From the NCBI RefSeq assembly GCF_044324875.1, contig NZ_CP172185.1: 64,000 nt of DNA. One strand, 5' to 3'. Position numbers and translations under genes: made by a program. Of the stretch, positions 1,765-7,537 are shown one piece after another. The first letter of the stretch is position 1. Every line of letters begins with the position of its first letter. The notes beneath the pieces were generated by a model that saw only the letters and a program-made list of their open reading frames with translations, was not told the DNA's origin and made no database searches. The stretch is from Escherichia coli (GTDB taxonomy: Bacteria; Pseudomonadota; Gammaproteobacteria; Enterobacterales; Enterobacteriaceae).

Positions 1765-2778
1765 ATGAGCGTAATTGAAACTGCAACTGTGCCGCTCGCA
1801 CAACAACAGGCTGACGCACTGCTGAACGTGAAAGATTTGCGTGTCACCTTTAGTACCCCGGACGGCGACGTCACGGCGGTCAATGATTTGAATTTTTCCC
1901 TACGTGCCGGAGAAACGCTGGGCATTGTAGGTGAGTCTGGTTCGGGTAAATCGCAAACTGCATTTGCGTTGATGGGCCTGTTGGCTGCCAACGGACGTAT
2001 TGGCGGATCGGCAACCTTCAATGGGCGTGAAATCCTCAATTTGCCAGAGCATGAACTCAATAAACTGCGCGCTGAACAAATCTCAATGATTTTTCAGGAC
2101 CCAATGACTTCGTTGAATCCCTATATGCGTGTCGGTGAGCAGTTGATGGAAGTGCTGATGCTGCATAAGAACATGAGCAAAGCTGAGGCGTTTGAAGAGT
2201 CGGTGCGGATGCTCGATGCGGTAAAAATGCCGGAAGCACGTAAACGCATGAAAATGTACCCGCATGAATTTTCTGGTGGCATGCGTCAGCGAGTCATGAT
2301 TGCGATGGCATTGCTATGTCGACCTAAGCTGCTGATTGCGGATGAACCCACTACTGCGCTGGACGTCACCGTACAGGCGCAGATCATGACGCTATTAAAT
2401 GAACTGAAGCGGGAATTTAATACCGCCATCATTATGATCACCCACGATCTTGGCGTGGTGGCGGGGATCTGCGACAAAGTGCTGGTAATGTACGCCGGGC
2501 GCACGATGGAATATGGCAATGCGCGCGATGTCTTTTATCAACCCGTTCATCCTTATTCTATCGGTTTGCTCAACGCGGTGCCGCGTCTCGATGCGGAAGG
2601 TGAAACAATGTTGACCATCCCGGGTAATCCGCCAAACTTGCTGCGATTACCGAAAGGTTGCCCGTTCCAGCCACGTTGTCCACATGCGATGGAAATTTGT
2701 AGTAGCGCACCGCCGCTGGAAGAGTTTACGCCTGGCCGTCTGCGTGCTTGCTTTAAACCGGTGGAGGAACTGTTATGA
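1765..2778 (+). CDS. oppD: oligopeptide ABC transporter ATP-binding protein OppD
   Basis: 337 aa; Walker [12 protein letters not shown] signature FSGGMRQR, Walker B LLIADEPT; 4-nt overlap with oppF. Confidence 0.95.
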   Translation: MSVIETATVPLAQQQADALLNVKDLRVTFSTPDGDVTAVNDLNFSLRAGETLGIVGESGSGKSQTAFALMGLLAANGRIGGSATFNGREILNLPEHELNKLRAEQISMIFQDPMTSLNPYMRVGEQLMEVLMLHKNMSKAEAFEESVRMLDAVKMPEARKRMKMYPHEFSGGMRQRVMIAMALLCRPKLLIADEPTTALDVTVQAQIMTLLNELKREFNTAIIMITHDLGVVAGICDKVLVMYAGRTMEYGNARDVFYQPVHPYSIGLLNAVPRLDAEGETMLTIPGNPPNLLRLPKGCPFQPRCPHAMEICSSAPPLEEFTPGRLRACFKPVEELL

Positions 2779-3779
2779 ATGCTGTAACTGAAGGAAGAAA
2801 AGTCCTCCTTGAAATCGCCGATCTGAAAGTGCACTTTGAAATCAAAGATGGCAAACAGTGGTTCTGGCAACCGCCGAAAACGCTCAAAGCCGTCGATGGT
2901 GTCACTCTTCGCCTGTATGAAGGGGAAACATTAGGTGTGGTAGGGGAGTCGGGATGCGGTAAGTCCACCTTTGCTCGCGCCATCATCGGTTTGGTCAAGG
3001 CGACCGACGGTCATGTTGCCTGGTTAGGTAAAGAGTTGCTGGGCATGAAGCCCGATGAATGGCGTGCCGTTCGCAGTGATATTCAGATGATTTTCCAGGA
3101 TCCGTTGGCATCGCTAAACCCGCGTATGACCATCGGCGAGATTATCGCTGAACCGCTGCGTACCTATCATCCGAAAATGTCACGCCAGGAAGTTCGCGAG
3201 CGCGTGAAGGCGATGATGCTGAAAGTCGGGTTATTGCCTAACCTGATTAACCGCTATCCGCATGAGTTCTCTGGTGGGCAGTGCCAGCGTATCGGGATTG
3301 CTCGTGCTCTTATTCTTGAACCGAAGCTGATTATCTGTGATGAGCCGGTGTCGGCGCTGGACGTGTCAATTCAGGCGCAGGTGGTCAACCTGCTCCAGCA
3401 GCTGCAACGCGAGATGGGATTGTCATTAATTTTTATCGCTCACGACCTGGCCGTGGTAAAACACATTTCCGATCGTGTGCTGGTGATGTATCTCGGCCAT
3501 GCGGTAGAACTGGGGACCTATGATGAGGTCTACCACAATCCACTACATCCTTACACCAGGGCATTGATGTCGGCAGTCCCCATACCTGATCCGGATCTGG
3601 AGAAGAATAAAACCATCCAGTTACTGGAAGGGGAATTACCGTCGCCGATCAACCCGCCTTCCGGTTGTGTTTTCCGTACCCGTTGCCCGATTGCCGGTCC
3701 GGAGTGCGCCAAAACACGTCCTGTTCTGGAGGGGAGTTTCAGACACGCCGTTTCTTGCCTGAAAGTCGATCCGCTTTAA
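2775..3779 (+). CDS. oppF: oligopeptide ABC transporter ATP-binding protein OppF
   Basis: 334 aa; Walker A GESGCGKS, signature FSGGQCQR. Confidence 0.95.
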   Translation: MNAVTEGRKVLLEIADLKVHFEIKDGKQWFWQPPKTLKAVDGVTLRLYEGETLGVVGESGCGKSTFARAIIGLVKATDGHVAWLGKELLGMKPDEWRAVRSDIQMIFQDPLASLNPRMTIGEIIAEPLRTYHPKMSRQEVRERVKAMMLKVGLLPNLINRYPHEFSGGQCQRIGIARALILEPKLIICDEPVSALDVSIQAQVVNLLQQLQREMGLSLIFIAHDLAVVKHISDRVLVMYLGHAVELGTYDEVYHNPLHPYTRALMSAVPIPDPDLEKNKTIQLLEGELPSPINPPSGCVFRTRCPIAGPECAKTRPVLEGSFRHAVSCLKVDPL

Positions 3780-3831: not shown

Positions 3832-5656
<1,825 letters not shown>

Positions 5657-5798
5657 AGATTAGAAATCCTTTTGAAAGCGCATTGTTATGAGTTTACGCA
5701 TATGGATTCATCTGGCAAATAAAAACGCGGGAAAAGCACTGGTCAGCGTCGGGGGCGGGGGTATAATGACCATTCTGTTATTGCATAGAGTAGTTAAC

Positions 5799-5972
5799 AT
5801 GAAGCGGAGTAGAACGGAAGTGGGGCGCTGGCGCATGCAGCGTCAGGCTAGCCGACGTAAATCGCGTTGGCTTGAGGGGCAGTCGCGCCGAAATATGCGT
5901 ATCCACAGCATCAGGAAGTGCATTCTAAACAAACAGCGTAACTCGTTATTGTTTGCGATCTACAATATCTAA
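5799..5972 (+). CDS. yciY: small arginine-rich protein (YciY-like, 57 aa)
   Basis: Internal ATG of ORF 5688-5972; translation MKRSRTEVGRWRMQ... matches my recollection of K-12 YciY; hairpin just downstream; weak SD. Confidence 0.45.
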   Translation: MKRSRTEVGRWRMQRQASRRKSRWLEGQSRRNMRIHSIRKCILNKQRNSLLFAIYNI

Positions 5973-5979
5973 ATGTACT

Positions 5980-5998
5980 GGGCACCATTGCGGTGCCC
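5980..5998. terminator. hairpin between convergent yciY and kch (GGGCACC-attgc-GGTGCCC)
   Basis: 7-bp perfect inverted repeat read directly; weak T tract. Confidence 0.4.
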
Positions 5999-6026
5999 AA
6001 TAAGTTTACTCTTCCGTCTTTAAACT

Positions 6027-7280
6027 CTATTTTTGCGCCGATTCTTTACTGTCAGCTTTCGTTTCTTGTTCATCGTTATCGCTGAAAATACCATGACCTG
6101 AGTTCAACAACATTGAAACGAGCATATCATTATTAATCTCTTCACCATTTAAAACTCGCGCCAGAATTTCGCTGCCAAACAGTTGCGGTGAGAGAATGAT
6201 ATCCGGATGTACCATCTTAATCTTATTCAGGTTTTTGCTATCACTGACGGCGAGAACTGTTTTGACATCACTGCTCATATCTTTTGCCGAGAGTACAACA
6301 AACGCGTTATCTGCATCGTTATCACTCAGCGCCAGAATGGCCCGGCAACGATCGATTCCCGCTTTCTTTAATACTGAACTGTCATTACTGTCACCGGGGA
6401 TAACATCAGCGTTATCGCCTAAGCGTTGCTCAAGTTGCTTGATATCATCTTCAGGCAAGTTGCTGATAACCGTTACGTTTTGTCCGCGTTGATTCAGTTG
6501 CAGGATCGTATTGATGGCGAGAATCGAATGTCCGCAAACAATAAAATGATCTTTACGATGCATTGTATGATTGTTTCCTTTTACAAGTTTGTTGAATCCC
6601 CCGCGGATAAGCGGACCAAAAATTGAGGTCATAGAGGTGGCAAAAACGGTAATGCCGGAAATAATGACCGAAATAGTGAACAATCGTGCTGATTCAGAAA
6701 CAGGGACAATATCGCCATAGCCGACGGTTGACATGGTTTCTATCGAAAAATAGAACGCGGTCATCAAACTTTCTATTCGCGGATTAAAACCTTCGCTTAA
6801 ATAAAGCGCACCGTAGGTGGAGTAAAACAGTAACGTCGTGAAACTAATAAATGCGAAAATTGTCCCGGCTGCGGCGCTACTGTGGGAGAAGTCTTTGCGC
6901 AGTATCAGCAAAAACACCAGCGTAAAAATGCAAAATCCAATACTAAATTTCAGCCAGGGATAAAAATGCAGGGTGTAAATTAGCGCTATCAACAACAAAA
7001 TGATACTGATTGCCCATGCGAGCTTTGCCCGGAACAGTAAGCCAATGGAGTTCAGGACAAGAAAGACGCCGAGCATAAATAGTGGGGCGTTTGCCAGCAA
7101 GGAGAGATCCAACTCTGAAAATGCTTTGATATGGAAAATATCAAGCAAATTGACCGACATACCATAGATTGTTTTAAAAATAAGCAATCCATTTAAAAAG
7201 ACGGCCAGCGCGAGAATGTCGTGCCGTAGGGTCACCCATAAATTTGTTGCTGTTTGTTTGAATGTAGCCCAGTGACTCAC
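6027..7280 (-). CDS. kch: voltage-gated K+ channel Kch
   Basis: TVGYGD selectivity filter plus RCK/TrkA-N domain; 417 aa if the GTG at 7280 (remembered K-12 start) is used, ORF extends to alternative GTG at 7298. Confidence 0.9.
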   Translation of the reverse strand: MSHWATFKQTATNLWVTLRHDILALAVFLNGLLIFKTIYGMSVNLLDIFHIKAFSELDLSLLANAPLFMLGVFLVLNSIGLLFRAKLAWAISIILLLIALIYTLHFYPWLKFSIGFCIFTLVFLLILRKDFSHSSAAAGTIFAFISFTTLLFYSTYGALYLSEGFNPRIESLMTAFYFSIETMSTVGYGDIVPVSESARLFTISVIISGITVFATSMTSIFGPLIRGGFNKLVKGNNHTMHRKDHFIVCGHSILAINTILQLNQRGQNVTVISNLPEDDIKQLEQRLGDNADVIPGDSNDSSVLKKAGIDRCRAILALSDNDADNAFVVLSAKDMSSDVKTVLAVSDSKNLNKIKMVHPDIILSPQLFGSEILARVLNGEEINNDMLVSMLLNSGHGIFSDNDEQETKADSKESAQK

Positions 7281-7537
7281 TGATACCTCTGTAACCACAA
7301 TTTTGTTTAATTATCTCAACGTGCACATTTTCTGAACATACATGCGGCACGTGAATGTGTTAAACAATAGTAGATGACTTTATCCGCAGTAATCAAAGGT
7401 TTTGAGTGAGCAACTCTGCGTCAGGAAAGGGCATTTTTCCTGAATATGCTCACATCATATAAAGAAATACAGATAAAGTTATTATCTGCTTGTGGGGGGG
7501 AATGCACTGACCGACCTATAAGGAAAGGCCAAACAAG

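Follow-up and report, generated by a model that had tools for sequence, protein, structure and literature searches.

What does the 57-codon open reading frame between cls and kch encode, does it form a gene of its own, and what could its product do? We addressed these questions in a stretch of Escherichia coli chromosomal DNA of 64,000 nucleotides (contig NZ_CP172185.1), which we call the window. A preliminary description, made from the letters alone, had picked out the frame as arginine-rich and YciY-like, and RefSeq agrees: it has 'yciY: YciY family protein' (WP_001309467.1) at exactly the same coordinates (locus 3200-3373, corresponding to 5799-5972 of the window; Table 1). The product, MKRSRTEVGRWRMQRQASRRKSRWLEGQSRRNMRIHSIRKCILNKQRNSLLFAIYNI (57 residues), matched the NCBIfam model NF033701 with 109.8 bits and E = 5.1e-32 (curated cutoff of 30 bits), with residues 1-55 falling on profile positions 1-55 of 56, and it has the length and start of the family (∼56-59 aa, an MK/RRSR start and the core EVxRWRMxRQ...RWLExQSRR). 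A homology search had been proposed as a check, and besides this match it returned homologues throughout Enterobacterales. When compared with the supplementary tables of two papers, the amino-acid sequence proved identical to that of K-12 YciY (b4595, YP_001165316.1), and the DNA differed from K-12 by one synonymous base. The K-12 gene lies between the same two neighbours, begins at the same codon and is equally long; there is no substantive difference between the two copies. The copy in the window is the O157:H7-type allele, and positions 5600-6100 are 100% identical to many O157:H7 genomes. The flanking genes in the ORF list and in RefSeq are cls and kch, as described, and the Arg/Lys content, put beforehand at about 30%, is 29.8% (13 Arg and 4 Lys). 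The precomputed annotations of every YciY homologue carry PF26518 (YciY); our search of Pfam-A, in a copy that apparently predates PF26518 or was built without it, matched YciY to no family.

An ORF of this size is unremarkable alone: a six-frame count gives 45 ORFs of ≥30 aa that overlap this 4.5-kb region. What goes beyond chance is the family match (E = 5e-32) together with the coding-type substitution pattern across genera (see below). We conclude that the frame is the already known E. coli gene yciY, the type gene of its family, and that the preliminary description had come upon a small gene whose annotation is correct and which experiments have validated. As an explanation of the locus as a whole, a known stand-alone gene for a small basic protein (K-12 b4595) has, in our estimate, a probability of about 0.9. 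As a discovery it carries little weight: practically all E. coli genomes have yciY annotated, it has NCBIfam and Pfam models of its own, and its start has been verified experimentally.

Table 1. Features of the yciY locus, in window coordinates
Feature	Position	Strand	Details
yciU	3832-4161	-	annotated as acidic HI1450-family dsDNA-mimic protein
cls	4196-5656	-	divergent from yciY
In-frame upstream extension of the yciY frame	5688-5798	+	37 codons; outside the yciY gene; spans the region of the divergent cls and yciY promoters, plus the yciY leader
cls promoter-like site	5691-5718	-	-35 TTGCCA 5718-5713, 16-nt spacer, -10 TAAACT 5696-5691; 9/12 consensus matches
yciY promoter, sigma-70-type (predicted)	5740-5767	+	-35 TGGTCA 5740-5745, 16-nt G-rich spacer, -10 TATAAT 5762-5767; 10/12 consensus matches
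Weak Shine-Dalgarno GAG	5788-5790	+	8 nt before ATG; read from sequence
yciY CDS	5799-5972	+	ATG start, 57 codons + TAA; RefSeq CDS WP_001309467.1; NF033701 match
G+C-rich hairpin	5970-6008		arms 5970-5986 and 5992-6008; core stem 5979-5986/5992-5999 (8 bp), loop ATTGC
kch	6027-7280	-	convergent with yciY

How widely is the family distributed? A word-indexed protein search returned 128 YciY clusters, and an exhaustive HMM scan of 1.84 billion representatives returned 38 proteins, all of them short and YciY-like except for one repetitive insect protein. The named members come from Enterobacteriaceae, Yersiniaceae (Rouxiella), Pectobacteriaceae (Brenneria, Pectobacterium, Symbiopectobacterium), Morganellaceae (Morganella, Providencia) and Erwiniaceae (Erwinia). 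Judged by this distribution, the YciY family is old and specific to Enterobacterales, with no detectable relatives among larger proteins. The insect protein, an 819-aa sequence from the leafhopper Homalodisca vitripennis (P0146), matches the profile in five short stretches and is probably low-complexity noise. A partial 'YciY family protein' labelled Listeria monocytogenes (P0043) lies on a 252-bp contig and is probably contamination.

We asked whether yciY has the signals of a separate transcription unit. In its predicted promoter, TATAATG is invariant in the eight aligned genera. A wider set of 11 genera comprises those of the substitution analysis (see below) with Morganella, a Pectobacteriaceae member and Erwinia added, and 10 of the 11 retain a recognisable TATAAT; the TGGT of the -35 hexamer is conserved within Enterobacteriaceae. 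Transcription would start near 5774 and give a leader of ∼25 nt. The Shine-Dalgarno sequence had been called weak, and it consists of just a GAG; GAG or GGA is kept at the same distance from the ATG in the 8-genus alignment. On the opposite strand, GAGT(T/G)TACGC and TCTGGCAAA, the reverse complements of the -10 and -35 elements of the cls promoter-like site, are conserved across genera, and this site probably functions as the cls promoter. The two promoter-like sites stand back to back, with their -35 hexamers separated by the 21 bp of 5719-5739. Such tight divergent promoters may couple the transcription of cls and yciY, and may be a reason why the pair is never separated. Directly downstream of the yciY -10 element (5768-5775 in the window, and its counterparts elsewhere), most genera have a G+C-rich discriminator, e.g. 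GGCGCTTC, GTGCGCTC, GACGCGTC and GTTCGCGC; that of E. coli is weaker (GACCATTC). A G+C-rich discriminator is typical of promoters under negative ppGpp/DksA control.

The hairpin that had been noticed directly downstream of yciY is an inverted repeat with 17-nt arms of 82% complementarity. Its minimum free energy is -17.5 kcal/mol on the plus strand and -19.9 kcal/mol on the minus strand (z = -4.2 on both strands), and none of 200 shuffled sequences folded as well. A hairpin of the form GGGCACC(N4-6)GGTGCCC is found 3' of yciY in seven Enterobacteriaceae genera, whatever the next gene, with the compensatory version AGGCACC/GGTGCCT in Enterobacter and K. oxytoca. It is probably a bidirectional terminator for the convergent genes yciY and kch. 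A terminator scan did not call the hairpin at 5970-6008, because in E. coli the T-run is missing and the U-tract is poor. Enterobacter and K. oxytoca have an A-T pair at the base of the stem, where E. coli, Salmonella, Citrobacter, Cronobacter and Cedecea have G-C. The Enterobacter stem lies between an A-run on its 5' side and a T-run on its 3' side, the layout of classic bidirectional terminators; the T-run has degenerated in E. coli. The start of kch is called differently by the mechanical ORF list (GTG at 7298, 423 aa; 6027-7298 on the minus strand) and by RefSeq (7280, 417 aa).

With these elements, yciY would be monocistronic, transcribed rightward from its own sigma-70 promoter back to back with the cls promoter, translated from the ATG at 5799 by way of the weak GAG, and terminated at the conserved hairpin that it has in common with the convergent kch. 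That yciY, with this identity, promoter, start and end, is a stand-alone unit is in our view almost certain. The locus does not resemble a leader peptide or an upstream ORF: kch is convergent, a hairpin follows the stop codon, and the downstream neighbours vary among genera.

Is the protein made? Ribosome profiling or tagging had been suggested as a check, and both have been published for the identical protein of K-12, so the evidence here comes from the literature on K-12 and not from the strain of the window. A chromosomal yciY-Venus translational fusion fluoresces and was the positive control for fluorescence in one study (Nakahigashi 2016, PMC4909307), which also reports an initiation peak from tetracycline-inhibited ribosome profiling (TetRP); we consider this peak below together with the start codon. 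In the data of Schumacher 2023 (PMC10746267, Table S3), ribosome footprints on yciY amounted to 50-84 RPKM at pH 7.6, 79-112 RPKM at pH 5.8 and 166-229 RPKM at pH 4.4, and the mRNA to 104-176, 454-687 and 445-787 RPKM, respectively. The mRNA thus increased ∼4-fold at low pH, with a translation efficiency of 0.2-0.5 (Schumacher 2023, PMC10746267). These values indicate that yciY is translated and acid-induced, mainly at the RNA level. The preliminary description had named a missing translation signal as one finding that would speak against the gene; the TetRP peak, the Venus fusion and the Ribo-seq coverage all provide such a signal. Five of the 13 Arg codons, as read from the sequence, are rare ones (CGA twice, CGG, AGA and AGG). 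Taken together, the rare Arg codons, the weak Shine-Dalgarno sequence and the low translation efficiency suggest a low-abundance factor and argue against an abundant, stoichiometric ribosomal protein.

What kind of protein is YciY? It has a mass of 7.1 kDa, a pI of 12.0 and a net charge of +15, with only two acidic residues. AlphaFold2, supplied with a 26-sequence alignment, predicted a single continuous helix from residue 5 to residue 56 (mean pLDDT 89), although for a short basic peptide such a model may reflect mere helical propensity. Residues 1-40 (SRxEVxRWRMxRQ...RWLExQSRR) are almost invariant across Enterobacterales, and the conservation, which extends to two Trp, a large number of Arg and Gln/Ser, covers every face of the helix. 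The residues S4, E7, V8, R10, W11, R12, M13, R15, Q16, Q28, S29, R30, I35 and R39 are invariant in the alignments; the last 17 residues vary, yet stay hydrophobic. The highest hydrophobic moment of any 18-residue segment was 0.35, compared to a mean of 0.43 ± 0.09 for shuffled sequences, 81% of which were at least as amphipathic. In addition, the helical-wheel resultants (0.28 for Arg/Lys and 0.15 for hydrophobic residues) showed that both classes are spread around the helix. The hydrophobic-moment test led us to reject an amphipathic helix that lies on the membrane surface or binds lipid. No transmembrane segment of ∼20 residues, of the kind found in small hydrophobic membrane proteins and type I toxins, was present (GRAVY -1.14; no 18-residue window above 0.56 on the Fauchere-Pliska scale), nor was a metal-binding motif, and the single Cys is not invariant in the family alignment. 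YciY is therefore predicted to be cytoplasmic, probably all-helical, and neither inserted in the membrane nor amphipathic. It is unusual in kind, with one predicted helix, a charge of +15, conservation across the whole order and a fixed place beside cls.

We compared YciY with known families by sequence, profile and structure, and none of these searches gave significant similarity to any RNA-binding or ribosomal family. No helix-turn-helix or other DNA-binding domain or fold was detected with the local Pfam, the PDB search and Foldseek, and PHROGs and PADLOC contained no match. The Foldseek search of the single-helix model against the PDB returned 0 matches, a result that is uninformative for a single helix. 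In the PDB sequence search the only hits were to mammalian mitochondrial uS14m (E = 0.16-5), with no bacterial uS14 chain among them. The likeness, WRMLRxxxRRK...RIxSLRK, is local to the N-terminal helical region of uS14, extends over ∼30 residues and is not significant. Pfam Ribosomal_S14 did not match YciY at E ≤ 1, and hhalign against E. coli uS14 gave a probability of 0.14%. With E = 0.16 at best and 0.14% in the profile comparison, we rejected a relationship to uS14 and regard the likeness as a resemblance in composition. In the searchable literature, we found no experiment on the function, binding partners or localisation of YciY and no role assigned to it. The name yciY is absent from the supplements of a Salmonella small-protein census and of a paper on stationary-phase ribosome composition, and papers on clsA promoters and minor sigma factors contain nothing on yciY.

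The simplest reading of a helix that is conserved on all sides, lacks a core and carries a charge of +15 is that a polyanionic partner surrounds it. In such a mechanism YciY would bind a structured RNA, either rRNA or one particular transcript, or some other polyanion, and its Arg/Trp/Gln-rich helix would fold on this partner. The protein would act as a low-abundance factor, modestly expressed and more so at acidic pH, and its C-terminal tail, which is variable and hydrophobic, would make a second contact or mediate self-association. An association with RNA or the ribosome, which the preliminary description had considered typical of so basic a composition, is plausible from that composition and from the predicted non-amphipathic basic helix. 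By analogy with known systems we favour the Arg-rich helix that binds structured RNA or another polyanion, but only tentatively, at somewhat less than even odds.

The closest analogues of such a helix are the ARM RNA-binding helices of lambda N and HIV-1 Rev, which are likewise short, basic and made up largely of Arg, Gln and Trp; every face carries basic residues, and a hydrophobic core is lacking. ARM peptides fold upon binding to an RNA hairpin or groove. The likeness is one of composition, as there is no sequence homology to YciY; moreover, an ARM is a motif inside a larger protein, whereas YciY is a free-standing protein of 57 residues with a variable hydrophobic tail. YciY can also be compared with stress-responsive small proteins that were missed by early annotation. 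Like them, it is encoded by a short conserved ORF between other genes, which has a promoter and a terminator of its own, and it was later validated by tagging and profiling. However, most characterised small proteins of that kind are hydrophobic single-pass membrane proteins, and YciY is hydrophilic (GRAVY -1.14).

Besides the lack of similarity to RNA-binding families, one further observation speaks against binding to RNA or a polyanion: the one constant genomic partner of yciY is cls/yciU and not a translation or RNA gene. The divergent order yciU-cls <-> yciY was found in 11 of 11 genera from five families, with a cls-yciY spacer of 140-250 bp. Both outer flanks of this triad vary, so that yciU and cls are the only constant neighbours of yciY. 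Downstream, the neighbour differs at least seven times and can be kch, yciI, an OYE-type oxidoreductase gene, a YnfU-like gene, a chemoreceptor gene, a Rce1-like gene or an unknown gene.

YciY might then be tied to its neighbours, either by regulating cls at the shared promoter region or by binding the anionic lipids linked to ClsA (cardiolipin, phosphatidylglycerol). The constancy of the divergent arrangement, set against the repeated changes downstream, and the closeness of the two -35 hexamers are consistent with this possibility, and Arg/Trp-rich peptides are known to bind to anionic membranes. However, YciY has no amphipathic face (its hydrophobic moment of 0.35 is below that of the shuffled sequences, and the hydrophobic resultant is 0.15), and a helix on a lipid surface would not need conservation at the level of identity on all its faces. 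Regulation of cls finds no counterpart in a DNA-binding fold detectable by Pfam, PDB or Foldseek. Furthermore, the adjacency has a passive explanation, as any break in a 140-bp spacer that holds two promoters would damage both genes. We therefore consider a tie to cls or its lipids unlikely.

Could YciY instead bind DNA, or a protein that imitates it? As a small nucleoid-associated or otherwise DNA-binding basic protein, or as the basic partner of the acidic dsDNA mimic YciU, it would have the appropriate charge (+15) and pI (12). Moreover, yciU belongs to the conserved triad in all 11 genera, and a DNA mimic would be a natural ligand for a nucleic-acid-binding helix. The searches described above, however, detected no helix-turn-helix or other DNA-binding domain, and the YciU family is understood to be much wider than the YciY family, so YciU does not need YciY. 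We regard these possibilities as improbable, slightly more so than a tie to cls. The constant proximity of a strongly acidic DNA mimic to a predicted helix that is strongly basic may be suggestive.

The reverse question is whether the protein matters at all: the conserved unit could be an RNA (an sRNA, or the mRNA as a regulator), with the ORF incidental or secondary as in a dual-function RNA. The short transcript that we infer (∼230 nt), with its own promoter and a strong, conserved hairpin, resembles many sRNAs, and the low translation efficiency would fit as well. We examined the type of substitution in residues 1-41, which are conserved, using orthologous DNA from Citrobacter, Salmonella, Enterobacter, Klebsiella, Cronobacter, Cedecea and Rouxiella. 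Synonymous sites in yciY were near saturation (pS 0.4-0.9), while pN was 0.03-0.2 among Enterobacteriaceae and reached 0.29 versus Rouxiella. Where it could be estimated, dN/dS was 0.03-0.18 (0.01-0.06 in the neighbouring cls). Among the 11 genera, the mean pairwise differences at codon positions 1, 2 and 3 were 0.235, 0.199 and 0.537, and the yciY frame was the only frame without stops in all of them (five Enterobacterales families). Synonymous sites near saturation combined with nearly invariant amino acids mean that the protein is constrained, and not the sequence or structure of the RNA. In addition, translation has been demonstrated for K-12 YciY, and a search of positions 5400-6300 with Rfam 15 gave no relevant match (a chance hit to CRISPR-DR35 inside kch had E = 0.7 and 19.3 bits, compared to a gathering threshold of 35). 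An RNA as the conserved unit is thus very improbable, though the transcript might have a secondary role as an RNA.

Conservation within the species points in the same direction. At least 80% of the yciY coding sequence is present in at least 5421 of 5426 complete E. coli genomes. At ≥99% identity we counted 5377 records for the coding sequence and only 4398 for the surrounding 501 bp, which indicates that the coding sequence is more conserved than its surroundings. In a sample of 60 records taken evenly across the ranking of 5423 E. coli records, an intact yciY was annotated in 59. A frame disrupted in close relatives, which had been named as another finding that would speak against the gene, is therefore not the rule: yciY is intact in the 11 genera and in these 59 records. 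Published experiments, the substitution pattern and the population data are three independent lines of evidence, and together they establish yciY as a real protein-coding gene under constraint at the protein level.

The only disruption in the sample of 60 was found in E. coli C3728, a clinical isolate (NZ_CP196347.1; locus 2501-3374), where an IS1A inserted after codon 40 truncates yciY; the gene must be dispensable at least there. Twelve to thirteen 'plasmid' records also carry a cls-yciY-kch segment. None of them is mobilizable, and their lengths lie between 150 kb and 4.9 Mb. We rejected a spread of yciY on plasmids, as these records are mislabelled chromosomes or chromosomal fragments.

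Which ATG starts the protein? As the preliminary description had stated, the mechanical six-frame ORF reaches an upstream ATG at 5688, which gives 94 aa. In an alignment of upstream-extended homologues, amino-acid conservation began sharply at Met38 of the 94-aa form, i.e. at Met1 of the 57-aa form; it was essentially absent upstream of this residue and near-complete downstream of it. A conserved 'RVV' in the untranslated upstream frame reflects the conserved Shine-Dalgarno block of the DNA. In K-12, the TetRP initiation peak lies on the internal yciY ATG (coordinate 1306812; Nakahigashi 2016, PMC4909307). A 94-residue product from the ATG at 5688 would have the open frame in its favour, and many automatic gene callers do call it (93-96 aa versions in E. 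coli, Klebsiella, Trabulsiella and metagenomes), but we rejected it as having next to no chance, because the extension is unconserved at the amino-acid level and shorter or missing in several genera, the ATG at 5688 adjoins the cls -10 element upstream of the conserved yciY promoter, and both the TetRP peak and the NCBIfam model begin at the internal Met. The preference for the internal ATG at 5799 expressed beforehand agrees with the onset of conservation and with the published peak, and it is effectively settled that the 57-codon start is the real start of yciY.

The analysis narrows the options for YciY to a protein that is cytoplasmic by prediction, constrained as a protein and not as an RNA, and acid-induced. 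Gene order also allows YciY to be viewed, in place of a generic RNA binder, as the third member of a yciU-cls-yciY module, in which it would be a ligand of YciU or would act on the divergent promoter or on anionic lipids. This is an improbable proposal, derived from the presence of the triad in 11 of 11 genera, the repeated rearrangement of the other flank and the rise in yciY mRNA at low pH. If it were true, the module would link cardiolipin synthesis to acid or envelope stress.
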